Positions 1,906 to 56,789 of a stretch of 64,000 nucleotides of DNA are shown here, piece by piece. Source of the stretch: a virus. The notes below the pieces were generated by a model. That model ran no database searches. It had not been told where the DNA came from and saw only the letters and a list, made by a program, of their open reading frames with translations. Every line of letters starts with the position of its first letter. Position 1 is the stretch's first letter. A program made the position numbers and the translations under genes. The stretch is taken from IMG/VR virus record IMGVR_UViG_3300023179_000037, positions 47,976 to 111,975 of that record, one strand, 5' to 3'.

Positions 1906-3068
1906 TGTATTCCTTTAAGTCATATTTTTATGAATCAGTGACGGATGAGAGCAAACTAACTCATCTTGAACATTTAGAAGACCATGTGATAAATGCTGGA
2001 TCGGAAGGATTTCACCATGCTGTTAACAATCTAGTACAGACGCACAATCTTTTAACTGGAAAAAAATCTAATGCTTCCATTTCCACAAAATATGATGGAA
2101 GTCCAAGTATAATAGCCGGACATAATCCTGAGAATGGTAAATTCTTTGTGGCATCAAAATCCGTATTCAATAAAAACCCAAAATTAAATTATACAATCGA
2201 GGATATAGCTAAAAATCATGGCCATGCGCCTGGATTAGTATCTAAATTAAGTCATGCATTAAAATATCTACCAAAGGTGATACCCCCGGGTAAAGTATAT
2301 CAAGGCGATCTAATGTATAGTAAAGATGACGGTGATGTGCAAGAGACTAAAGATAGTTATCACTTTAAACCCAATACTATTACTTATTCAGTAAAAAAGA
2401 ATAATCCAGAAGCCAATAAAATTAAAAAAGCTAAATTAGGTGTTGCTTTTCATACTGCATATAGTGGACCTAGTTTAGACAATATGAAGGCAGAATATAA
2501 TGCCGACACCGGACATCTAAAAGCTAACGACAATGTTCATATCATCAATACAAAGTTTGATCATACCGCTGCTACGTTAACTCCTAAAGCAAATGAAGAA
2601 TATAATAAACATTTTTCTGCTGCTATTGCTGAACACAATAAATTACAAAATTATGGACATCAGAATGGCCATGAGGATAGAATGAAGGAATATATTAATC
2701 AAACAGTTAAAGATGAATCAACGCCTAATACTAATGATTACAAAAAGTATCTAAAATCTTGGCATAGTAAACAGATAGATAAGGTGAAGACTCAAGTAGC
2801 CAAACAAAGAAAAACTAATGAGATGAATAGTGTTCTAAATCACGTTGATACTCATAAATCTCATTTTGATTCAAGTTTTAAGATACACCATCATCTACAA
2901 AAGGCTAAAGACATTTTGACACACTCTATGGCAGCTGCAGACTTTGATTATAACCATAGTATAAATGGAAAAGCAGCAAAACCAGAAGGTTTTGTAGTTG
3001 CCATAAATAACCGACCAACTAAATTTGTTGACAGAGAAGAATTTAGTAAAGCTAATTTTCAAAGATGA
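1905..3068 (+). CDS. Conserved T4-like protein (DUF6267-like) with ligase/covalent nucleotidyltransferase motifs
   Basis: KLTHLEHLED N-terminal signature; KYDG (motif I), YQGDL (III), PEGFV (IV), TKFV (V). Confidence 0.65.
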   Translation: MYSFKSYFYESVTDESKLTHLEHLEDHVINAGSEGFHHAVNNLVQTHNLLTGKKSNASISTKYDGSPSIIAGHNPENGKFFVASKSVFNKNPKLNYTIEDIAKNHGHAPGLVSKLSHALKYLPKVIPPGKVYQGDLMYSKDDGDVQETKDSYHFKPNTITYSVKKNNPEANKIKKAKLGVAFHTAYSGPSLDNMKAEYNADTGHLKANDNVHIINTKFDHTAATLTPKANEEYNKHFSAAIAEHNKLQNYGHQNGHEDRMKEYINQTVKDESTPNTNDYKKYLKSWHSKQIDKVKTQVAKQRKTNEMNSVLNHVDTHKSHFDSSFKIHHHLQKAKDILTHSMAAADFDYNHSINGKAAKPEGFVVAINNRPTKFVDREEFSKANFQR

Positions 3069-3580
3069 AATCATTTAGAGATTACAATAAACAAAAAGAA
3101 ATTATTAGAGATTTCGTAGAATATACTAGTAAAGAACTTGGACTTAAAGAAGTCCCTAAAGTTTTCTTTAGTGATTCAAAAAAAGAAGCATTTGATAATA
3201 CAAGCTTCGGACATTATAATCCAAGCGAAAACAAAATAATGGTAAATACTGCAGGTAGGCATCTTGCAGACATACTCAGAACATTAGGTCACGAAATGGT
3301 TCATCATAAACAAAACGAAGATGGTAGACTTCATGCATTAGCTGGTGAAACAGGATCATCCTTTGAAAATGAAGCAAATTCTATGGCTGGTATACTTCTT
3401 CGTAATTTCGGTAGATCTAATCCAACTATATACGAAGACTATGAAAACCATTATCGCTTCGATTGGGGAACTCCCGAAGGAACAAAATATATGATGAGCT
3501 TACATCCTTGGAATATAATATCACCTACAACAGCTAAAGAAATAATCAAAAATAAAATTAAAAATAGAAATTTAAAGTAA
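3065..3580 (+). CDS. Zincin-type metallopeptidase (HExxH)
   Basis: TLGHEMVHHKQ plus downstream ENEAN; ATGA overlap with upstream gene. Confidence 0.7.
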   Translation: MKSFRDYNKQKEIIRDFVEYTSKELGLKEVPKVFFSDSKKEAFDNTSFGHYNPSENKIMVNTAGRHLADILRTLGHEMVHHKQNEDGRLHALAGETGSSFENEANSMAGILLRNFGRSNPTIYEDYENHYRFDWGTPEGTKYMMSLHPWNIISPTTAKEIIKNKIKNRNLK

Positions 3581-5734: not shown

Positions 5735-7459
5735 ATGGCAATTAACGAATCAAAACACGAGGATCATGCTTTTGCAATAGGCGGATTCTCGCCCTTTACC
5801 CTAGGTCATCAAGCTGTAGCAAGGGAAATGCAAAAGGGTAAACACGCCAGTGTTAGTGTATACACCACTAAAGCTACCACTAGACCTATTCCTGTTGACA
5901 AAAAAGTAGAATATATCAAAAAATCTGTTGCGCCTTCCATACATGTGGGTGCAACAGTTACTCCACTTCACGCTCTATCAGATATGCACTCTAGAGGTTT
6001 GAGAGGATCCGTCACTTTCTATGGTGGTTCTGACAGAAAACCTATAGTTGACAGATTAAAACAATATAATGGTAAAGAGGGAGGACATGGTTATTATAAA
6101 TTTGATGCTATTCATTTCAAACAGGTAGGCGGAGAAAGAAAAGAGGGAGCAAGTGGTCTAGCTGGTATTTCTGGTACTGCTGCCAGAGCTTCTAAGTCGC
6201 CCGAAGAACTGAAAAAGTTTATTCCGAAAGAATTGCACAAGCACGCTACTGAGATATTTAATCATATTCAAGATAAAACAAGTCAAAAGAAACCTATAAG
6301 GGAAAGATATATAAACGAGGAATTATTTAATCTGTTAGATACTGTAGAGACGAAAGAGGGCCATATTGGAGAAATAGTATACAGAGGTTCAAATTATGTT
6401 ACTATTCAATTACCAAATAATCAAACAGTTAAGTCTTGGATTTATGAAATAAAAGAATCAAAACAAAATAAAATAGTAATAGAAAATACATTACCTGCAG
6501 AAAAAGAAAATACCTATGTTGTTAGATATAGGCATAAAATAAATGAAAAAATTCCTGCTCTATTATTACCATCAAAAAAATTAATAGAAGAAATGGGACA
6601 AGTAAAATACGATGATTATACTACTAAAAATTTAGAAATAGATAAAACAGCTGGAAGATTACTAAAATCTATATCAACTAGAAATGATCTTAATCCAAAA
6701 TATGTTAAACAGGCTATCATGGCAGTAGATAAAATGTTTGATATTGAAAAACAGGCAGCTAAAGGTAAAATTCCACCGGAAAAAGTGCACGATTTTACAA
6801 TGTATGCTTCTATTGCGCATGATACTCTTAATCTTCTTGGATATCAAGATAAAGAAATAATGTTTGTACAAAAACATTACATAGATTTTTCTAAAAATGT
6901 TGATGAAGATGATGCGGATCTTCAAGATGATGCCCCTGGACATTTAGTTGGGATTCATGGTGGGGGTGAAATCGATGAATGGACCGCCCCAGAAGAAAAT
7001 AGATTTATTCAAAAGGGAAGAGCAAGTCCTGGCATGTTTAAAAAAATATCAACTGCTGACTACGAGACCAGAACCAGCCCTGATGGTAAAACTTATAAAG
7101 TAAAAAAACAAATTATTAGTAAAGGTCATCAAAAAATAGATGATAAAGATAAATCTAATGTACAACCATTTGTAGGAATGTACGAGGAAAAAATGAAATT
7201 TAACTACGATAAACCTATTAAAAATCTAACTCATGATACAACTAAACCTGATAATAGAGTAGGATTAGTACCATTTAGTGATTTTTTAAAAATGAAACTT
7301 GATCAAAAAAATAAAGTATTTGGAACAGAGATAGGAGGATCAAGTATTCAACAGCCTCCCCCAACATCTAATCAGACGAATTCAAAAAGTTTAGATTTAA
7401 TTTCTAAAACAAAACAGGCAAAAACAGCAGCAAAAAGAATTCAAATGGGACTTGATTGA
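5735..7459 (+). CDS. HIGH-superfamily nucleotidyltransferase (cyanophage cytidyltransferase-like) with C-terminal extensions
   Basis: GGFSPFTLGH, GGSDR, ISGTAAR, then GEIVYRGSNYV module. Confidence 0.7.
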   Translation: MAINESKHEDHAFAIGGFSPFTLGHQAVAREMQKGKHASVSVYTTKATTRPIPVDKKVEYIKKSVAPSIHVGATVTPLHALSDMHSRGLRGSVTFYGGSDRKPIVDRLKQYNGKEGGHGYYKFDAIHFKQVGGERKEGASGLAGISGTAARASKSPEELKKFIPKELHKHATEIFNHIQDKTSQKKPIRERYINEELFNLLDTVETKEGHIGEIVYRGSNYVTIQLPNNQTVKSWIYEIKESKQNKIVIENTLPAEKENTYVVRYRHKINEKIPALLLPSKKLIEEMGQVKYDDYTTKNLEIDKTAGRLLKSISTRNDLNPKYVKQAIMAVDKMFDIEKQAAKGKIPPEKVHDFTMYASIAHDTLNLLGYQDKEIMFVQKHYIDFSKNVDEDDADLQDDAPGHLVGIHGGGEIDEWTAPEENRFIQKGRASPGMFKKISTADYETRTSPDGKTYKVKKQIISKGHQKIDDKDKSNVQPFVGMYEEKMKFNYDKPIKNLTHDTTKPDNRVGLVPFSDFLKMKLDQKNKVFGTEIGGSSIQQPPPTSNQTNSKSLDLISKTKQAKTAAKRIQMGLD

Positions 7460-39498: not shown

Positions 39499-39888
39499 AT
39501 GAATTTTGAATTGACCGATGAAAATTTTATTATGTACGCCATTAAATACTATGACAATCCTTATTGCAAAGGCATGGCAGAATTTTTAGATGATTTAAAA
39601 AGATTTAAATATCTTAAAAGATTATTTAGAAAATATAGTGCTACTAATGATTTAAAGGAAAGATTAATTCTAAATCATCTAATAGTAATTTACAATTTAT
39701 TTGGTGCAGAAGCAGCAACAAAAATGTTATTCTTTAAGATTGAAAAGAAATACTGGTCACAGTTAAAGACCTTTTTAGTATTTCTCAATTATATGCCGTT
39801 AACCGTTATAGTATCTAAAGGTATTGAAGTATTAGAAAGTGATATACCTTTAGACGATAGAATTATAGAAATTTTAAGAAAGATATAA
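39499..39888 (+). CDS. Conserved T4-like hypothetical protein
   Basis: ELTDENF..YA...YDNP.C...EF..DLKRFKYLKRL...LILNH. Confidence 0.75.
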   Translation: MNFELTDENFIMYAIKYYDNPYCKGMAEFLDDLKRFKYLKRLFRKYSATNDLKERLILNHLIVIYNLFGAEAATKMLFFKIEKKYWSQLKTFLVFLNYMPLTVIVSKGIEVLESDIPLDDRIIEILRKI

Positions 39889-40431
39889 ATGGGTAGATTT
39901 GTAGATTCAATGATTGCTTTAAGAATTTTAACTCTTTTGGTTACACCTTTTGTACAAACACCTGCCTATAAACTTGGTATTATTGATAAAAACGGTAAAG
40001 AATTAAAAACAATGCAGCAGCTTAATACTGCTGAAGAAAGAGATGCATATACTCTATTACATAGATTAGTTTATAGATTAAAACGTATTATTGAAAAGGT
40101 ACCTATTGAAAACAAAAAATTGGTATCTCTTGCGGCCGCATATGCGTTAATACGAGAATCATTACAACAAGAAAAAGAACCAATAGATTTAGAAAAGAAG
40201 TATTTAAATAAGTTAAATGAAAATCTTGTCCAAGAATTGGTTATTGTAGAAGATTTTTTACATAAAAATAAAATGTTTACTTTTAAACAATATTCTGAAC
40301 AAGAAGGTGGTGAAGGTGCTGCAACAGTGCCTACTAATAATATAGCTCAAGATACCCAAGCCATTGAAAAACCAGAGGGTTTTCCTATTTTCAAAAGAAG
40401 AAAAATTTTAAGGAGAAAACGATATGTTTAA
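39889..40431 (+). CDS. Conserved T4-like hypothetical protein
   Basis: PF....AYKLGIIDKNGK...AYT..HRLV..LKR. Confidence 0.7.
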   Translation: MGRFVDSMIALRILTLLVTPFVQTPAYKLGIIDKNGKELKTMQQLNTAEERDAYTLLHRLVYRLKRIIEKVPIENKKLVSLAAAYALIRESLQQEKEPIDLEKKYLNKLNENLVQELVIVEDFLHKNKMFTFKQYSEQEGGEGAATVPTNNIAQDTQAIEKPEGFPIFKRRKILRRKRYV

Positions 40432-47230: not shown

Positions 47231-48223
47231 ATGATTAAAAAAATAAAAACAAAGTTAACCGATGAAAGACAATATTTTAAACCCTTTAACTATCCTTTTT
47301 GCTATGAAGCTTGGCTTAAACACGAACAATCGCACTGGCTTCACCTTGAAGTTCCAATGCTCGAAGATGTAAAGGATTGGAAAAATAAATTAACTGAAGA
47401 TGAAAAGAAATTTCTAACACATATTTTTAGATTTTTCACACAAGGCGACATTGATGTTGCAGGAGGATATGTAAAAAATTATCTTCCCTACTTTCCTCAA
47501 CCCGAAGTGAGAATGATGTTATGTGGTTTTGCTGCACGAGAAGCTTTGCATATTGCAGCATACTCCCATTTAATCGAATCGCTTGGCATGCCGGACACCA
47601 CCTACAATGAATTTCTTGAATATGCGGAAATGCGAGAGAAACATGATTACATTCTAGATATCAGCTCAAAAAATAGTACTAAGCAATCTACAGCCGAACA
47701 CATTGCTGCATTTAGCGCATTCACTGAGGGAATGCAACTTTTTAGTAGTTTTATTATGCTTCTTAATTTTCCTCGTCATGGTGTTATGAAGGGCATGGGG
47801 CAAATTATTACATGGTCAATTGCTGATGAAACACTGCATTCTGAGTCTATGATTAAACTATTTAGAACATATATAGAAGAAAATAGAGAAATCTGGAATG
47901 ATGAACTTAAAGGAAAAATTTACACAATTGCTACCAAAATGGTGGAGCTTGAAGATAAGTTTATTGATTTGGCATTCGGCATGGTACGCGTGGCTAATCT
48001 GGACGCTGGTGACGTTAAACGTTATATCCGCTATATTACTGATCGTCGTCTTATCAGTATGGGTCTTAAAGGAATCATGAAAGTTAAAAAGAATCCGTTA
48101 CCTTGGGTAGAAGAAATGTTAAATGCCCCCACTCACACTTCATTTTTTGAAAATAGAGTAACCGATTATGCGAAAGGGGCAATTACCGGATCTTGGACAG
48201 ATGTTTGGGCAAAGACTGCTTGA
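47231..48223 (+). CDS. nrdB: Ribonucleotide reductase class Ia beta subunit
   Basis: EALH..AYS, EGMQLFSSF, DETLH, FFENRVTDY. Confidence 0.97.
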   Translation: MIKKIKTKLTDERQYFKPFNYPFCYEAWLKHEQSHWLHLEVPMLEDVKDWKNKLTEDEKKFLTHIFRFFTQGDIDVAGGYVKNYLPYFPQPEVRMMLCGFAAREALHIAAYSHLIESLGMPDTTYNEFLEYAEMREKHDYILDISSKNSTKQSTAEHIAAFSAFTEGMQLFSSFIMLLNFPRHGVMKGMGQIITWSIADETLHSESMIKLFRTYIEENREIWNDELKGKIYTIATKMVELEDKFIDLAFGMVRVANLDAGDVKRYIRYITDRRLISMGLKGIMKVKKNPLPWVEEMLNAPTHTSFFENRVTDYAKGAITGSWTDVWAKTA

Positions 48224-49554: not shown

Positions 49555-49898
49555 AATTATGTCCTAAGTGCGGTGCGGAGCATTCCAAATCTGGTAAATT
49601 TTGTTCTAGAGCTTGTGCTAATTCTAGACAATGGACTGTTGAACAAAAAAAAGTATTCTCTGATAGACAAAGAGAATATATGGCTCGCGATGATTCAGAA
49701 GAACACAGAGCAAAAGAAGAATTACGTTTTAAGATTTTGCACAAAGCTGGAGTTCTTGGAGCACATAAATCCATATCTTTGGAACAACTAGATAAAGATG
49801 AAGTAATGACTAATCCAGATGATTACTTTTTCGTTGCTCCAAGAATAGAAATTGATGGCAAATACGTTGAAAATGGGGACTTGTGGGAGGAGATATAA
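49551..49898 (+). CDS. Zn-finger protein (CPKC...FCSRACAN)
   Basis: N-terminal Cys motif of the type attached to homing endonucleases; no nuclease domain evident. Confidence 0.6.
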   Translation: MKLCPKCGAEHSKSGKFCSRACANSRQWTVEQKKVFSDRQREYMARDDSEEHRAKEELRFKILHKAGVLGAHKSISLEQLDKDEVMTNPDDYFFVAPRIEIDGKYVENGDLWEEI

Positions 49899-49924
49899 AT
49901 ACTGATTTAATTTGGTATTTATAT
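49893..49924 (+). promoter_or_regulatory. Late promoter TATAAATA embedded in a hairpin that occludes the downstream start codon
   Basis: ATATAAATAC (49893-49902) is complementary to GTATTTATAT (49915-49924); ATG at 49923. Confidence 0.75.
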
Positions 49925-50321
49925 GTGGATGTATCAGAATAAACCGCTAGAAGAAATTCCAGAAAATGCATATGGTTTTGTTTATTTGATCACTAATAAC
50001 GACAATGGCAAAAAATACATAGGCAAAAAGTTATTTTGGTTTAGAAAAACTAAAATATTAAAGGGTAAAAAGAAAAGATACAAAATTGAATCTGATTGGA
50101 AAACTTACTGGTCCTCATCCGAAGAGGTTAAGTCCCTTGTTCAAAACTTAGGAGAGCAATTATTTACCAGAGAAATACTTCACATTTGCGAGAGTAAGGG
50201 AATGTGTAATTATTTAGAAGCAAGGGAACAAATGGACAGAAGAGTTTTAGAATCAAATGATTACTACAATGGCACCATACAGTGCAGAATACATAAAACT
50301 CACGTAAAGTTAAAAGATTAA
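49923..50321 (+). CDS. GIY-YIG endonuclease (Seg/endonuclease II-like)
   Basis: YGFVYLITN....KKYIGKK, REIL, YYN. Confidence 0.85.
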   Translation: MWMYQNKPLEEIPENAYGFVYLITNNDNGKKYIGKKLFWFRKTKILKGKKKRYKIESDWKTYWSSSEEVKSLVQNLGEQLFTREILHICESKGMCNYLEAREQMDRRVLESNDYYNGTIQCRIHKTHVKLKD

Positions 50322-50322
50322 T

Positions 50323-50356
50323 CTTAATCATAATTTAATCTTGCGCAGACTATAAA
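50323..50356 (+). promoter_or_regulatory. Putative OmpR/PhoB-family operator (11-bp periodic YTTAAT repeats) with -10 element
   Basis: CTTAATCA-TAA-TTTAATCT, then TATAAA at 50351. Confidence 0.45.
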
Positions 50357-50393
50357 AATAATTAAATATTAATGTAGGTAAATTTTTTACTAT

Positions 50394-50499
50394 CAGGCAA
50401 ATTTGACATTTTGATGACAAGACATTTTTTTTACGTTAGAAAATGCAGATAGGTTCAGTTACTAACTGAATTTCGTAAATCAAGATGCAAAGATGCCTG
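50394..50499 (+). ncRNA. Structured 5' leader RNA (three-way junction), riboswitch candidate
   Basis: CAGGCA/TGCCTG, TTTG/CAAA, CATTTTGAT/ATCAAGATG, CATTTT/AAAATG and AGGTTCAGTT/AACTGAATTT pairings. Confidence 0.55.
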
Positions 50500-50532
50500 C
50501 CCTTATTTTCATTTTACGTTTAGGAGATATAT

Positions 50533-51177
50533 ATGCGACTTCAAGAATTGGCAGCAAGATTAGTTGTAGTAGAAACAAAATTAGCAACTCTTACAGGGGT
50601 ACAACCCAATACATCAAGTCCAGTAAGTGTTGAGGAGCTGGATTCGAGATTATCAGTTGTAGAAGTACAAGTAGATCGTTTATTGGCAGAAAAAGCTGAG
50701 AAACAAGTTGCAGATATCGTAGCTGCTTCTCCTGATAAAGCACCAGTATCAGTTGCGGATATTGTTGCATTATCTGCTAGCTCAAATGTTCCTCAGGCTG
50801 CAGATATTGTTGCAGATGTTTTAGCTGTTCAAATGGAAGCACCCGCAATTCAAGATCCAGAAGTTGCAGCTATTGTAACTGCAGCTATTAAGGCAGTTAT
50901 AAGCGCTGATCCTGAAGTTGTTGCAGATCCTGCAGCTATCAAAGCAGTTATTACTGAAACTGTTGCACATATGCCTGCTCCTGCATCTGATGTTGAAGAT
51001 CAGGTTACTGCAGCAATTGCAGAAGTTTTAGCAGCAGCAACTGGTCAAGAAGTAACTAAAGATGAACACGAAGAAATACGAGATGCAGTGATAACACCAT
51101 CCGATACTGCGCTAGATGCAATTGAAGCAAGATTAACTGTTGCCGAAGCAAAGGTTGAAAGCCTGTTGGGAAAGTAA
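50533..51177 (+). CDS. Acidic Ala/Val-rich protein with three RLxxxE coiled-coil segments
   Basis: Strong AGGAG RBS; ARLVVVE, SRLSVVE, ARLTVAE. Confidence 0.75.
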   Translation: MRLQELAARLVVVETKLATLTGVQPNTSSPVSVEELDSRLSVVEVQVDRLLAEKAEKQVADIVAASPDKAPVSVADIVALSASSNVPQAADIVADVLAVQMEAPAIQDPEVAAIVTAAIKAVISADPEVVADPAAIKAVITETVAHMPAPASDVEDQVTAAIAEVLAAATGQEVTKDEHEEIRDAVITPSDTALDAIEARLTVAEAKVESLLGK

Positions 51178-51236
51178 TTAGTAAAATTAAAAGATGGTTC
51201 TATAGTATTATAGGATACTAAAAGATATCAATAATC

Positions 51237-51986
51237 ATGCACTACCGATCCATCTTCATATCTGATGTACATTTAGGTAGTAAAGGTTGTAAGGCGGAAT
51301 TATTAGTAAATTTTCTTAAAAATAATTCCGCTGATAAGTTATATCTTATAGGTGACATAGTTGATGGTTGGAAAATTCAACAAAATAAATGGGCTTGGAA
51401 ACAAGCCCATTCCAATGTAGTTCGTCGAGTCTTAGGACACGCAAAACAAGGAACTGAAGTATTTTATGTAGCCGGAAATCATGATGAATTTCTTAGACCT
51501 CTAATACCTTATGGTATATCGTTTGGTAGAATACATATAATTAATCAAATGTCTCACATCGGTATCGATGGAAAAAGATATTTGGTATTACATGGTGATC
51601 TATTTGATGGTATCTCAAGACTTGCTCCCTGGATAAGTTTTTTAGGAGATAAGGCATATGATTTACTACTCATCTTCAATACTTCATTCAATCGTTGGAG
51701 GCATAGATTCGGATTCGGTTATTGGTCTCTTTCTCAATTTCTTAAACAACGTGTCAAGCGGGCTGTGGACTTTATTTTTCATTTCGAGCGCAATCTCATT
51801 GACTATGGCCGTAAGCGTGGGTTTGACGGAGTCATTTGTGGACACATCCACAAACCAGAAATCAAAACCATAGATGGATTTGTATATATGAATGATGGTG
51901 ACTGGGTAGAATCATGTAGTGCTTTAGTTGAACATCCTAATGGTCGTTGGGAAATAATTTATTGGACCAAAGAAATTCCGGAATAA
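51237..51986 (+). CDS. Metallophosphoesterase, PlcP/LpxH-like
   Basis: FISDVHLG, GDIVDGW, GNHD, HGD.FD, CGHIH, N.GDWVESCSALVE. Confidence 0.85.
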   Translation: MHYRSIFISDVHLGSKGCKAELLVNFLKNNSADKLYLIGDIVDGWKIQQNKWAWKQAHSNVVRRVLGHAKQGTEVFYVAGNHDEFLRPLIPYGISFGRIHIINQMSHIGIDGKRYLVLHGDLFDGISRLAPWISFLGDKAYDLLLIFNTSFNRWRHRFGFGYWSLSQFLKQRVKRAVDFIFHFERNLIDYGRKRGFDGVICGHIHKPEIKTIDGFVYMNDGDWVESCSALVEHPNGRWEIIYWTKEIPE

Positions 51987-52001
51987 TTTATAGGAGATTT
52001 T

Positions 52002-52145
52002 ATGTTTTTTCTTAATTTTTACAATCCATATTATTGGTACAATGTATTAAATCTATCAACAATGCAAAACACTGAAGAAGGTTTATCAAATAATGTAGAA
52101 GAAGATCCTCAGGATTTTGACATAGAAGTAGAGTATACAGAATGA
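52002..52145 (+). CDS. 47-aa peptide with aromatic N-terminus and acidic C-terminus (not in ORF track)
   Basis: AGGAG RBS at 51992; MFFLNFYNPYYWYNVLNLSTMQNTEEGLSNNVEEDPQDFDIEVEYTE; ATGA overlap with ATP-grasp gene. Confidence 0.7.
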   Translation: MFFLNFYNPYYWYNVLNLSTMQNTEEGLSNNVEEDPQDFDIEVEYTE

Positions 52146-53053
52146 AAAATGTATGGGTCTTTCATTATGATTCCTTATCTGTTGAAAAAGATACTGAGAC
52201 CCGTAGTTTGGTTGAACGATTTAAAAAGCACGGTATAGACTGCAAAGTGTATCAACCAAAGAATTTTGATATTATTACAAGTCGTAAAAGTCATAAGAGT
52301 ATTCGCTATCAAGGTAGTCGTATTGAACTACCAGATGCTGTACTTGTAAGAACTGGTGCAGGAACAAACTATTTTACGCTGGCACTGCTTAGACAATTAG
52401 AAAACTTTGATATACCAATTATCAATAACAGTCAAAGTATAATGCATAGTAGAGACAAAATGATCAGTAGTCAAATATTGGCCCGCGCCAAGTTGCCTAC
52501 ACCAAGAACCATGTTGGTCAGTCATCCTATTAATATTGACATAGTAGAACAGGAGATTGGTTTTCCCTGTGTAGTAAAACTGGTAACAGGTAGTCAAGGG
52601 AGGGGTGTTTATCTCTGCAGAGATAAAGATATGTTTGTTAATTTAATGGATCTAACAGACAATCTTAAGAGTAAAAAAACTCTAATCATACAAGAGTTTA
52701 TTAACAGCGGAGAATTATTTGATCTTAGAGTTTGGGTCATTGGGGGCAAGACTATAACTGCTATGAAGCGTACACCACCTAAAGATGATTTTAAAGCCAA
52801 TATTACTAGGGGAGGTATAGGTGAACCTTTTGATTTAAATGAGGAAATTAGTGATCTAGCCAGTAAGACTGCTAGGGCATTTGATCTTGAAATAACTGGA
52901 GTAGATTTACTATTTAATGGTGAAAAATATCTAGTATGTGAAGCCAACAGCAGTCCTGGTTTTGAGGGCATAGATAGGTACTGCGGCACCAATATGGCCG
53001 AACAAATAGTTAATTATATAAGGAATAGAAATGATTTTCGATTTAGTAAGTGA
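52142..53053 (+). CDS. RimK/LysX-family ATP-grasp ligase
   Basis: RDK, P.P.T, VVK...GSQGRGV, IQEFI, DLRV, FKAN...GG, GVDLL, EANSSPG. Confidence 0.9.
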   Translation: MKNVWVFHYDSLSVEKDTETRSLVERFKKHGIDCKVYQPKNFDIITSRKSHKSIRYQGSRIELPDAVLVRTGAGTNYFTLALLRQLENFDIPIINNSQSIMHSRDKMISSQILARAKLPTPRTMLVSHPINIDIVEQEIGFPCVVKLVTGSQGRGVYLCRDKDMFVNLMDLTDNLKSKKTLIIQEFINSGELFDLRVWVIGGKTITAMKRTPPKDDFKANITRGGIGEPFDLNEEISDLASKTARAFDLEITGVDLLFNGEKYLVCEANSSPGFEGIDRYCGTNMAEQIVNYIRNRNDFRFSK

Positions 53054-53813
53054 TTTGCACATTGATCACTGGGGTCGTAGTTTTGAAACTGATTGGCTAT
53101 GCGATCAAAAAAGTGATATTCTAGTTGTTGCAGGAGATACTAGTGATAGTGTAGATATAACATGTGAATATTTACACAAGCTTACTAATTATTATACAGA
53201 TGTTTTAGTTGTTGATGGTAATCATGAACATCAAAATAATATGGAAAATTTAGAAGAATCAATACAATACTGGAAATCCTGCGTATCCCAAACATTGGCA
53301 ACTTATCTGGGAGATAAACAACCCACAATAAATGGTGTTAAATTTATTGGAATCTGTGGATGGTGGAGTTTTGATTTTGGCTTACCCAATATTAGCTCAG
53401 AACAAACTATATCTACATGTAAAGATCGTTATGGACTTACTGATATTGCAATTCAAAATCAAATGAATCAAAGTCTTCTAGATGCAAATCATATTACAAA
53501 TTTAATGGTGGAAGCAACACTTAATTCCGAAGTAAATGATATTGTAGTTGTTACTCATAGTTTGCCTCACTCCAGTTGTATTAGTTGGAATAGATACCCT
53601 CCAGATTACAATGTAGTGGGTTGCTATGGAAATACTAGACTGCAATGGGTATTAGACGCTGATATTAATAAAAAATGTCGCTATTGGGTTTTTGGACATA
53701 ATCATGATAGAAAAAATGTACCATATAAGTCTCTACGTTTCATCAGTAATCCTCGAGGCCGTCGTGAAGATTGGAACAGAATAGATTATCAAGCTCATAC
53801 GATAGAAATTTAA
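53031..53813 (+). CDS. Calcineurin-like metallophosphoesterase
   Basis: SDLH, AGD, GNHE, VTH..P, FGHNH, NPRG. Confidence 0.85.
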   Translation: MIFDLVSDLHIDHWGRSFETDWLCDQKSDILVVAGDTSDSVDITCEYLHKLTNYYTDVLVVDGNHEHQNNMENLEESIQYWKSCVSQTLATYLGDKQPTINGVKFIGICGWWSFDFGLPNISSEQTISTCKDRYGLTDIAIQNQMNQSLLDANHITNLMVEATLNSEVNDIVVVTHSLPHSSCISWNRYPPDYNVVGCYGNTRLQWVLDADINKKCRYWVFGHNHDRKNVPYKSLRFISNPRGRREDWNRIDYQAHTIEI

Positions 53814-53820
53814 ATAAAAA

Positions 53821-54402
53821 ATGAATTTTATCACAGATTGTGATATTATAAATTCTATAGATATAAATGATCTTTGGGTAATTGACAAATTTATATTGTC
53901 TAAGAAATTGGGATACTTATGTGGGCCGGCAGGGGTCCTTCCACCAAATGAAGGAAAATATATTGTTCGTCCTTGCATAAATATAAGAATGCTATCTAAA
54001 GGTGCTAAATTCATGTGGTTAAATACCATAGATGATATAATACCCGACGGATTCTTTTGGTGTGAAGTATTTGAAGGTCGTCATAGAACTTTTGACTACA
54101 ATTGGGGCAAACAAATACTAGCTGTTGAAGGTTTTAGAGACGATCCCGACCGATTAGACAGATTTAGCAGATGGACCAAAATAGATGATGAATATATACT
54201 ACCAGATTTTATTCAAGAAATAGCTTCTAGATATGAATGGTTTAATATTGAAACCATTGGTAATAAAATTATAGAAGCGCACTTTAGATATAATGATGAT
54301 TTTGCTAATCACAATGCCAAAACAATTATTCCTATTTGGAAAGAATATTTTTATGAAAGTCAAGAGGGCGATAGACTAGGATTTTTATTAAGATATGACT
54401 AA
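53821..54402 (+). CDS. Compact ATP-grasp-like protein (T4-like phage family)
   Basis: DK..LS..LGY.CGPAG...YIVRP..N...FWCE.FEG.H...N.E.IG..IIE.H.R. Confidence 0.55.
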   Translation: MNFITDCDIINSIDINDLWVIDKFILSKKLGYLCGPAGVLPPNEGKYIVRPCINIRMLSKGAKFMWLNTIDDIIPDGFFWCEVFEGRHRTFDYNWGKQILAVEGFRDDPDRLDRFSRWTKIDDEYILPDFIQEIASRYEWFNIETIGNKIIEAHFRYNDDFANHNAKTIIPIWKEYFYESQEGDRLGFLLRYD

Positions 54403-55405
54403 AAAGATACTAGTAATAACTGATAACTTAACAGATCAGATTAATGGTGTGGTTACAACCTATAAAAATCTTGAGGCGTTTGCGATTCGTGATGATTATA
54501 ACATTGTTTATATTACTCCCAATGAGTTCCGCCACTTTGATTGCCCTGTGTATAACGAAGTCAAGATTGCCTATCCGAGGTCGATGGGCACGAAGATTAA
54601 GAAGATCAATCCGAATTATATCCATATCGCAACAGAGGGTCCTGTGGGTTTGTGGGCTCGAGCATATCTTACAAAACGTGGTTATAGTTACAATACTGCT
54701 TATCATACTAAATTCCCTGAAGGATTACATACCTTGGTTGGAATACCTGAAACCATAACTTGGAAGTATATTAAATGGTTTCACAAACATACAGGCAAAG
54801 TATTAACAACTACAGATGCAATGGTAAATCTACTAAAGGAAAAAGGTTTGAGAGCAGAAATTATTCCTTGGACACGAGGAGTTGACAGATCTATTTTTAA
54901 TGATTCGCTGAGAAATAAATCTAATAAAGTCGTCAAGTTGGTTTGTGTTAGTAGAATTAGTAAAGAAAAAAATCTAGATGATTTCTGTAGTTTAGTTTAT
55001 CCAAACGCTGAGAAAATACTCGTGGGCGATGGCCCATACCGAGAAGAATTAGAAAACAAATATTCTGATGTAAAATTTGTTGGATTTAAAACGGGAACAG
55101 ATTTAGCTTACTATTTTGCCAATGCTGATGTATTTGTTTTTCCATCACGTTGGGAAACTTTCGGAATCGTAATGATAGAAGCCATGGCATGTGGTACTCC
55201 AGTTGCAGCTTATCCGTGTCAAGGGCCCTTGGAAGTAGTTGATCACGGAAGTACTGGATTTCTTAGTAACGATTTAAATTTAGCAATCACTGAGTGTTTA
55301 TCATTAGATAGAAATGAAGTGATATGTAAAAGTAATAAGTGGTCTTGGGAATCTGCTTGGAATATTTTTAAAGATAACTTAACGCCATTAGATAAAAAAC
55401 ACTGA
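54395..55405 (+). CDS. GT4 glycosyltransferase, Agt/glycolipid synthase-like
   Basis: ITD....QINGVVTT, HIATEGP.G, YHTKFPE, W.RGVD, R.SKEKN, ETFG.V..EAMACGTPV. Confidence 0.85.
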   Translation: MTKKILVITDNLTDQINGVVTTYKNLEAFAIRDDYNIVYITPNEFRHFDCPVYNEVKIAYPRSMGTKIKKINPNYIHIATEGPVGLWARAYLTKRGYSYNTAYHTKFPEGLHTLVGIPETITWKYIKWFHKHTGKVLTTTDAMVNLLKEKGLRAEIIPWTRGVDRSIFNDSLRNKSNKVVKLVCVSRISKEKNLDDFCSLVYPNAEKILVGDGPYREELENKYSDVKFVGFKTGTDLAYYFANADVFVFPSRWETFGIVMIEAMACGTPVAAYPCQGPLEVVDHGSTGFLSNDLNLAITECLSLDRNEVICKSNKWSWESAWNIFKDNLTPLDKKH

Positions 55406-55458
55406 GATATCAAAATACACAATACAATGTTATTGTATAAGTTTTAGTATCCGAGCAT

Positions 55459-55487
55459 TTGACTCGGATAACTTTTGGTTATATAAT
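55459..55487 (+). promoter_or_regulatory. Early sigma70 promoter with overlapping inverted repeat
   Basis: TTGACT-N17-TATAAT; TATCCGAG/CTCGGATA. Confidence 0.8.
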
Positions 55488-55492
55488 ATGGT

Positions 55493-55798
55493 ATGATGAG
55501 AAAAAAGCGATCTGACAGACGTCACATTGTATACATGCTACAGAACACCGTAACAGGCGAGTTCTACATTGGTGTTACTCAGGGATTTAGACAAAAGGAT
55601 CTTCGTGTACGAGTGCTAAAGCACTTTCAGAGGGCCCTAGCAGAGTCTAAAGACTGGGCATTGTGCAAGAATATTCGCACATACGGCCCTGAGAGCTTCT
55701 TCTGGACCATCTTAGAAGTCGTGAAGGGCAAAGTGCCAGCGCATGACTTCGAGCGTCTGCTGACCAAGATGTACAAGCCAGAGTTGAACACCCAGTAA
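55493..55798 (+). CDS. Small GIY-YIG family protein
   Basis: HIVY.L......FYIGVT...R...H...E...LN. Confidence 0.75.
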   Translation: MMRKKRSDRRHIVYMLQNTVTGEFYIGVTQGFRQKDLRVRVLKHFQRALAESKDWALCKNIRTYGPESFFWTILEVVKGKVPAHDFERLLTKMYKPELNTQ

Positions 55799-55819
55799 CC
55801 CTTCAGAGTGCTCGGGCTC

Positions 55820-55848
55820 TTGACATGGATTACTTTTGGTTTTATAAT
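55820..55848 (+). promoter_or_regulatory. Early sigma70 promoter
   Basis: TAACCCTTCAGA upstream; TTGACA-N17-TATAAT; GGTATAGTG downstream. Confidence 0.9.
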
Positions 55849-55877
55849 ATGGGTATAGTGAAATTTAGGAGATGCAA

Positions 55878-56789
55878 ATGGCTTCAGTAGCAATCAAGTT
55901 CAATGAGTCCAAGAAGCGCTGGGAAGGCATGGTAAATGGTCGTGTCAAATCCCACAGTACTCATCTTGATTACGTGCAAAATAAGATGACTGCGTTGGGA
56001 TACAGAGTATCTGCAGAACAAGATCTTAAAGAAGATGCAAAGAAAGTTGACGAATTTGGTATTACCAAGCGTTTCGAGTTCGTCAAGCAGATGGTGTCAA
56101 TGGTTGCAAGGAAAACGGTGGCATCGGCAATCATTACTGGCCAAGGTGGTCTAGGTAAGACTCATAGTGTCATCAAAGCTCTAAAAGATTGTGGTCTACA
56201 TGATGTTACTGATCTTGCATCATTCGAGATTGGAACTCGTTTGCAAGGATCTAAATCTTTTCGTATCATCAAAGGATTCAGCACTGCGAAGGGTTTGTAT
56301 CGTTCACTGTTCGAAGGCAACGGTATGACTCTAGTGTTTGATGACACAGATAATATCTTGAAAGACCCGGTTGCTCTTAACCTTTTGAAGGGTGCACTAG
56401 ATTCGTATGGTGAACGTTATATCAATTGGAATGCTGATATCAAAGACGAAGACTTGCCTAGGTCTTTTAAGTTTACTGGAAGTATCGTGTTTATCAGCAA
56501 CAAAGACATGGAGACACTAGATCAAGCAGTCCGTTCGCGTGCTTTGTGTGTCGACCTGAGCATGACTGAATCTCAAAAGATTGAGCGTATGGAGACTATT
56601 GTCGACGATGCAGAATTCTTGCCCGAGTACAGTAAAGAATACAAGCATGATGCTTTAGAGTTTTTGCGTTCAATGGTCAAGAGTGTTCAGAATCTATCGC
56701 TTCGATCACTTATCAGTGTAGTAAAGATTCGTGCTGAGGGTGGCAACTGGAAAGAATTGGCTAAGTACATCTTAACTGCTGGGACTTGA
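55878..56789 (+). CDS. P-loop/AAA+ ATPase
   Basis: Walker A GQGGLGKT, Walker B LVFDD, IFISN-like sensor, SR finger; ATG 55878 fits AGGAG spacing better than 55872. Confidence 0.85.
   Translation: MASVAIKFNESKKRWEGMVNGRVKSHSTHLDYVQNKMTALGYRVSAEQDLKEDAKKVDEFGITKRFEFVKQMVSMVARKTVASAIITGQGGLGKTHSVIKALKDCGLHDVTDLASFEIGTRLQGSKSFRIIKGFSTAKGLYRSLFEGNGMTLVFDDTDNILKDPVALNLLKGALDSYGERYINWNADIKDEDLPRSFKFTGSIVFISNKDMETLDQAVRSRALCVDLSMTESQKIERMETIVDDAEFLPEYSKEYKHDALEFLRSMVKSVQNLSLRSLISVVKIRAEGGNWKELAKYILTAGT

Follow-up and report, generated by a model that had tools for sequence, protein, structure and literature searches.

The closest described systems are bacterial operons in which a gene encoding the phospholipase C PlcP is followed by a gene encoding the glycosyltransferase Agt. 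In Burkholderia cenocepacia the operon is BCAL2364-2365-dagK; plcP-agt-dagK knock-outs abolish monoglucosyldiacylglycerol (MGDG) and glucuronic acid diacylglycerol (GADG, or GlcADG), and agt alone makes both lipids in Escherichia coli (PMC13691135). PB7211_983/PB7211_960 of SAR11 strain HTCC7211, together with the "type 2" layout of Sebastian et al. (PMC4796936), belong to the same bacterial lipid-renovation system. Here we analyze a pair of genes that matches these operons in its two families, its gene order and its common orientation, and that was found in a virus: IMG/VR virus record IMGVR_UViG_3300023179_000037, of which a stretch of 64,000 nucleotides (positions 47,976 to 111,975), hereafter the window, was studied. 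The window is the 3' part of this 112-kb record, whose completeness is estimated at 66%. The first gene encodes a metallophosphoesterase (MPE1) and the second a family 4 glycosyltransferase (GT4), and from their sequences it is highly likely that they are members of the PlcP family and the Agt clade, respectively:

51237-51986, + strand: PlcP-family metallophosphoesterase (MPE1), 249 amino acids (aa), Pfam Metallophos E value 9e-13
54395-55405, + strand: Agt-clade GT4 glycosyltransferase, with GT4 N- and C-terminal domains

The pair shares with the bacterial PlcP-Agt operon all metal ligands of PlcP, as well as most of the catalytic, UDP-binding and diacylglycerol (DAG)-binding residues of Agt. 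Unlike the bacterial operon, it is phage-encoded, falls in phage clades of its own, is not accompanied by dagK and shows an Asp to Glu replacement in Agt, with Trp instead of Thr in the preceding position; furthermore, in the window 2.4 kb of other genes separate the two, and no Pho box can be recognised. A second comparison is with cyanophage pstS and phoA, phosphate-stress auxiliary genes under host PhoB control. The pair resembles them in being a host-derived phosphate-starvation function in a T4-like aquatic phage, but it would act on the membrane lipid pool of the cell itself and not on the uptake of external phosphate.

The best NCBIfam matches of MPE1 are two LpxH models, TIGR01854 (50.8 bits, cut-off 190) and NF003743 (53.6 bits, cut-off 134), and LpxH is also the closest solved structure by sequence, with an E value of only 3e-6. 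Both proteins belong to the metallophosphoesterase superfamily and show a cap insert between the HGD and GHxH motifs; unlike LpxH, MPE1 has another genomic partner, groups in a separate clade and carries the motif GNHD. This motif is GNRD in true LpxH (3 proteins) and GNHD or GNHE in MPE1 and all 68 rows of the PlcP group. The metal-binding and catalytic residues D10, H12, D40, N81-H82, H119, H203 and H205 are all present in MPE1 and are invariant across 155 phage and 79 bacterial homologues, with the sole exception of H205, which is found in 78 of the 79 bacterial sequences. Bacterial homologues were obtained by scanning one genome per prokaryote species, which yielded 80 loci (77 informative for the downstream gene) in Alpha-, Beta- and Gammaproteobacteria, with 48-55% identity to MPE1. 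Three of five examined genomes that bear a homologue (Burkholderia, Chromobacterium and Pseudomonas) hold a separate true LpxH, which scores 236-336 bits, and the MPE1 homologues of these three genomes score 34-46 bits on the LpxH model.

In a maximum-likelihood tree, the split of LpxH from all other sequences is fully supported (100%), its branch totalling about 10 changes per site, and the window protein belongs to a phage clade (96%) whose neighbour is the proteobacterial PlcP clade (96%). Low scores, the GNHD motif, the separate true LpxH genes and the tree split all argue that MPE1 is not LpxH, and its original prediction as a PlcP-type enzyme agrees with the phylogeny. MPE1 is 52% identical to a gene of Burkholderia sp. 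BCC0506 (locus L115) that heads an operon with the order metallophosphoesterase-GT4-DAGK_prokar, which is read, from this gene order, as the plcP-agt-dagK operon of B. cenocepacia. PlcP orthologues in pathogenic Burkholderia show more than 72% identity to that of K56-2 (PMC13691135). MPE1 should thus be a putative metal-dependent phospholipase C of the PlcP type, acting on membrane phospholipids.

The second gene of the pair carries the Pfam domains Glyco_transf_4 and Glycos_transf_1, with the motifs HIATEGP at residues 77-83 and YHTKFPE at residues 103-109. Compared to the BCC0506 genome, it matches the agt that adjoins plcP with 248 bits and the next GT4 paralogue with 50 bits, and it is 39% identical to the agt of the Burkholderia operon. 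In the GT4 tree, the phage copies all fall in a single clade (99%), itself part of the plcP-linked Agt clade (95%), and other GT4 paralogues are set apart by branches longer than 5; the assignment of this gene to the Agt clade, which had been proposed from the window alone, is therefore upheld. The UDP-sugar motifs are present as SRISKEKN (for GRVAxEKN) and FPSRWETFG (for FPSxTDTFG). Residues H104, R187, E191, K192, T255, F256 and G257, E262 and the HIATEGP motif are conserved, and the DAG-binding residues Thr162, Arg163 and Trp320 of the SAR11 enzyme GTcp correspond to T160, R161 and W318, which 107-109 of the 109 phage copies retain, these three being placed by motif and not by alignment to GTcp itself. 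According to these features, the protein is a putative diacylglycerol glycosyltransferase in which the carboxylate is kept as Glu rather than as the family-typical Asp.

The two genes are strictly linked in phages and in bacteria. In 58 of the 77 informative bacterial loci, the MPE1 homologue is immediately followed by a co-oriented GT4 homologue, and these downstream GT4s are full-length and show 33-44% identity to the window GT4 (E values of 1e-60 to 1e-85). Relatives of MPE1 are encoded by at least 595 viral stretches and those of GT4 by at least 281, so neither gene is a chance open reading frame (ORF). The GT4-anchored sample contains the best 80 viral loci, 79 of them with enough upstream sequence, and in all 79 an MPE1 gene is found upstream of GT4; nothing lies between the two in 69 of them, where they are often 2 bases apart. 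The claimed pairing thus extends to every relative of this sample. GT2-type glycosyltransferases are the other known partner of bacterial plcP (plcP-pgt layouts). Among 61 informative viral loci anchored on MPE1, 33 show GT4 and 18 of the other 28 show a GT2/GT21-type glycosyltransferase in the same place; either GT4 or GT2 is next to MPE1 in 51 of the 61. Among isolated phages, only Pelagibacter phage Mosig and Synechococcus phage S-SRM01 carry MPE1 homologues, in each case annotated as LpxH. The Mosig homologue (MT647606) is 48% identical and is divergent from pstS (L082:4894-5841, - strand, and 5992-6729, + strand); it is annotated as UDP-2,3-diacylglucosamine hydrolase, with no glycosyltransferase annotated beside it.

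Other genes are found around plcP in related phages. The GT2/GT21-type glycosyltransferase that is directly 3' of phage plcP has 235 aa at L061:6895-7602 and is found at 17 other loci. Also 3' of the plcP-GT2 pair, L061 shows a gene encoding a TerC-family membrane protein (L061:7663-8352, - strand) and another encoding a protein of the isocitrate lyase/PEP mutase family (L061:9133-10407, + strand; ICL, 349 bits). In addition, a small ORF of 58-75 aa, absent from the window, overlaps or follows the end of plcP at L003:6701-6928, L009:2107-2337 and L025:1623-1799; its product has a hydrophobic N-terminus and the motif ...DVPGR..L.F...C...L..MT...KF..FRV.G.C.

If both enzymes act as their families suggest, MPE1 would cut the phosphorylated head group off host glycerophospholipids, leaving diacylglycerol, to which GT4 would transfer a sugar from a UDP donor; the resulting glycolipid would contain no phosphorus and preserve the bilayer. 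In a phosphate-starved cell under infection, membrane phosphorus would thereby be freed for phage nucleotide and DNA synthesis. On sequence grounds, we consider it probable that the pair converts host phospholipid to glycolipid in order to free phosphorus.

The upstream regions of phage MPE1 genes bear on when the pair would be expressed. The E. coli Pho box has the consensus CTGTCAT-N4-CTGTCAT. Of 123 distinct regions upstream of phage MPE1 genes, 28 contain an exact TGTAAY-N5-TGTAAY repeat that precedes the ATG by 42-64 nucleotides (nt), with a mode of 44, against a background rate of 0.002 per 120 nt; it is followed after about 10 nt by TAAATA, and after 5-8 nt more by the ATG. Loci with this Pho-box-like element upstream of MPE1 include L025, L039, L051, L058, L078 and L254. 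The 11-bp period of the repeat and its 10-nt distance to the -10-like box match proteobacterial Pho boxes, from which we infer phosphate-starvation control in the family. To judge by these distances, the mRNA from such a promoter would be nearly leaderless. In the window, a different hexamer shows the same geometry as the box of the relatives:

50324-50356, + strand: TTAATC-N5-TTAATC, then 10 nt and TATAAA; possible promoter of the run of genes, found once in the window

This element lies about 175 nt before a gene encoding an Ala-rich protein, and from its sequence it is a possible promoter for the run; since the TTAATC pattern was drawn from this site itself, its single occurrence is no test. 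Homologues of the Ala-rich protein (53% identity) located 3' of GT4 in other phages are preceded by a TGTAAT-N5-AGTAAT/TAAATA box (L233:7124-7765 and L237:8087-8728), which suggests that the Ala-rich protein may also be phosphate-regulated.

Several findings weigh against phosphorus release as the role of the pair in this phage. The exact Pho-box-like motif of the relatives was searched across the window and is absent, and the 112-kb record, at an estimated completeness of 66%, shows neither pstS nor phoH. Ten of the MPE1-anchored viral loci have no adjoining glycosyltransferase and show MPE1 alone between nrdA and nrdB. Finally, the SAR11 GTcp uses a His104-Asp256 dyad, with the Asp in FPSxTDTFG, and more than 90% of the activity is gone in the D256E variant (PMC8231724). 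The acidic residue at this position is Glu254, after Trp, in 103 of the 109 phage copies, that of the window included; at this cost to GTcp, MGDG or GlcADG as the product of the window GT4 is not assured. Thr/Ala-Asp is retained there by the two basal phage lineages and by 58 of the 63 bacterial copies; the change to Trp-Glu therefore dates from within the phage lineage, where it became fixed. The phage GT4s are clearly constrained, yet their sugar donor or product may differ from those of MGDG and GADG synthesis. Phosphate mining by the phage, as put forward in the original prediction, is what we infer from the families, the linkage and the promoters of relatives, for a window which itself is without the Pho-box-like promoter.

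The same findings bear on an alternative in which the pair remodels the envelope for other ends, such as blocking superinfection, tuning the membrane for assembly or lysis, or supplying diacylglycerol. Phage attachment and susceptibility are reported to change with lipid renovation in Pseudomonas and Ruegeria (PMC9804370, PMC9938194), the window has no recognisable Pho box, and the altered catalytic residue of the phage Agt clade may mean another product. However, many relatives have the pair behind a Pho-box-like promoter, the Mosig homologue is paired with pstS, and the bacterial operon is a phosphate-starvation response (PMC4796936, PMC13691135). Envelope remodelling for such ends is accordingly rated unlikely, and phosphorus release remains the preferred role of the pair.

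A further alternative concerns the genes that separate plcP from agt in the window, an insert of 2.4 kb with 4 genes. All claimed genes of the original prediction are present on the + strand at their coordinates, in an operon-like run; in 51237-55405 the gaps between genes are of 15 nt or less and 3 junctions overlap. The run, together with the gene before it, lies between a segE-like gene at 49923-50321 and one of the GIY-YIG type at 55493-55798. Apart from the pair and the possible promoter, the region contains:

50533-51177, + strand: Ala-rich protein of 214 aa, no recognisable family
52002-52145, + strand: acidic peptide of 47 aa, conserved, with a ribosome-binding site and an ATGA overlap with the RimK start
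52142-53053, + strand: RimK-family alpha-L-glutamate ligase (ATP-grasp), TIGR00768 228 bits
53031-53813, + strand: second metallophosphoesterase (MPE2), PptH-like fold, phrog_1649 E value 6e-27
53821-54402, + strand: phrog_3577 protein, probably small and ATP-grasp-like, phrog_3577 E value 4e-33
55448-55470, + strand: terminator-like hairpin from a consensus scan, closing the run 51237-55405
55459-55487, + strand: near-consensus sigma-70-type promoter of the next gene, 11 of 12 matches in a consensus scan, overlapping the hairpin

The RimK ligase reaches 228 bits on TIGR00768 (cut-off 143; model positions 8-276 of 276) and an E value of 3e-46 on Pfam RimK, and its closest solved structures are the RimK-type glutamate ligases 7qyr and 4iwx. 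Its homologues were sampled as 80 viral loci from an alignment-based scan, a single-protein contig scan having found none. At least 25 of these loci have neither MPE1 nor GT4 nearby, and RimK is right after PlcP in 32 of the 80. Further homologues (45-49% identity) are found in cyanophages S-RIM12, S-RIM32, S-RIM8 and S-CAM8, which gave no PlcP match. A peptide beside the cyanophage RimK was also considered and was ruled out for S-RIM12 and S-RIM32, whose upstream ORFs are different.

The 47-aa peptide is found in 9 loci, with RimK divergence down to about 50%, and each copy abuts the RimK start. Its N-terminus is aromatic (N..NP..W), an acidic stretch reads P-(Q/E)-D-(F/L)-D, and the last residue is Glu in every copy. 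When 1.84 billion representatives were searched with a profile, about 10 members came up, all ending in Glu: nine of 33-50 aa and one protein of 109 aa with the motif at its C-terminus. In the sample of 80 RimK loci, 9 of 10 peptide-bearing cassettes are located between PlcP and GT4. RimK is known to act on ribosomal protein S6 and LysX on the carrier protein LysW, both on a C-terminal Glu, and the window shows a comparable arrangement of a RimK-family ligase beside a small acidic protein ending in Glu. Peptide and ligase would fit a ligase-substrate pair like RimK/S6 or LysX/LysW. The peptide is, however, dissimilar to both S6 and LysW, lacks a zinc finger, has a conserved aromatic N-terminus and is phage-restricted (about 10 clusters), and downstream enzymes of the LysW pathway are absent. 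We suggest only tentatively that the peptide is a dedicated substrate of the ligase, by Glu extension of its C-terminal Glu or as a LysW-like carrier. The cassette is almost confined to the space between plcP and agt, and so could cooperate with the lipid swap: the product would be strongly anionic, with an aromatic, membrane-seeking N-terminus, and could replace the surface charge lost with anionic phospholipids.

MPE2 scores 66.7 bits on TIGR03729, under the cut-off of 148, and its metallophosphoesterase motifs are intact. Its AlphaFold2 (AF2) model has a predicted local distance difference test (pLDDT) value of 85, and the best PDB match is the Mycobacterium tuberculosis phosphopantetheinyl hydrolase PptH (6unc; E value 1e-10, TM score 0.69-0.72), followed by Dbr1 and Mre11 with E values of 4e-7 or weaker. 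As pure speculation, an MPE2 that strips the prosthetic group from the host acyl carrier protein would halt fatty-acid synthesis. In scans of viral contigs with single proteins, only 5-6 close loci each came up for MPE2 and phrog_3577, and the close MPE2 homologues are all located between plcP and GT4.

The phrog_3577 protein has 605 homologue clusters, none of them named. Its AF2 model has a pLDDT of 58, and about 45 of the 50 matches listed by VIA-align (Z 5-7, best 7.0) are ATP-grasp enzymes, over residues 83-193, so the modeled protein is probably small and ATP-grasp-like. Two ATP-grasp genes had been claimed between the pair; RimK is clearly one, and the second is weakly supported by this model. 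The gene is also found alone between nrdA and nrdB (L266 and L267) and in cyanophages S-T4 and ACG-2014f.

If the whole run 51237-55405 were one pathway, the inserted genes would process PlcP or Agt products, for instance by head-group dephosphorylation or amidation of a glucuronosyl lipid. Tight packing and overlapping junctions fit such a pathway, as do the 32 of 80 loci with RimK right after PlcP, the 9 of 10 peptide cassettes inside the pair and the position of all close MPE2 homologues there. Against it, the pair is bare in 69 of the 79 GT4-anchored loci, inserts are found in every combination among relatives, phrog_3577 stands alone between nrdA and nrdB, and RimK and phrog_3577 are found in cyanophages that give no PlcP or GT4 match, with the exception of S-SRM01, whose PlcP is far from phrog_3577. 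A single pathway is therefore still more doubtful than envelope remodelling. The extension of the pathway by the four intervening genes, which had been suggested, is not borne out: since RimK and phrog_3577 occur elsewhere without the pair, nothing shows that they extend it, and the four genes are best read as independently mobile accessory cassettes not demonstrably in the pathway. They would have landed in a recombination hot spot near nrdA/nrdB and homing endonucleases.

The least probable reading by far, that of the databases, takes 51237 as LpxH of the lipid A pathway and 54395 as a lipopolysaccharide or O-antigen glycosyltransferase; it has on its side the best named matches in NCBIfam and PDB and source annotations as "UDP-2,3-diacylglucosamine diphosphatase", but is contradicted by scores far under the cut-offs, GNHD instead of GNRD, the separate true LpxH genes, the tree split and a GT4 nested in the plcP-linked Agt clade.

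The source virus is a lytic, T4-like myophage. T4-like markers of the record are nrdA, nrdB, a gp61-type primase, tail-fibre and baseplate genes, segE and GIY-YIG homing endonucleases. We also weighed a cyanobacterial host; the DNA polymerase and primase show only 40-52% identity to those of cyanomyophages, and the 112-kb record shows no psbA. No gp23 was found either, in a search that also came up empty in the control genomes. The island has no megablast match among 50,697 phage records, and Rfam (E values up to 1) found nothing over 49800-56000. A second sigma-70 consensus promoter at 55820-55848 (12 of 12 matches) is present, and the two promoters start the next block of small genes; counts in the consensus scans for sigma-70 promoters and terminators were no higher than in shuffled sequence. 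The Ala-rich protein is rich in Ala, Val, Asp and Glu and has no aromatic residues; it shows no Pfam, PHROG or NCBIfam match, and ESM Atlas gives viral hypothetical clusters only. Its homologues with 77-80% identity are directly 5' of plcP in 3 loci, and those with 53% identity are directly 3' of GT4 in 2 loci. At L273, the T4-type DNA polymerase region shows ORFs of 487 and 260 aa (L273:481-1944 and 2458-3240; G000:C1:37583-39046 and 39560-40342) instead of the usual one gene of about 850 aa, and may be a split gp43.

Full-text literature searches found no paper on phage-encoded PlcP or Agt; in one virome paper, "lpxH" figures as a viral metabolic gene. Particular to the window are the 2.4-kb split, the peptide-RimK cassette and the absence of the Pho-box-like promoter of the family. 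The cassette could be followed up in its own right and, if the proposal is true, would be a phage peptide-glutamylation system of a kind not yet described. The Asp to Glu change fixed in the phage clade is a natural experiment on the donor and acceptor specificity of Agt. If the two enzymes work as their bacterial relatives do, phages of phosphate-poor waters would also dismantle host phospholipids as a phosphorus reserve, with the glycolipid patching the bilayer, and the pair would be a new class of auxiliary metabolic gene, beyond the uptake functions of pstS and phoA. Virome surveys would then mislist these genes as the lipid A gene lpxH, and part of the aquatic glycolipid signal and of the "plcP" counts used as phosphorus-stress markers would be viral.

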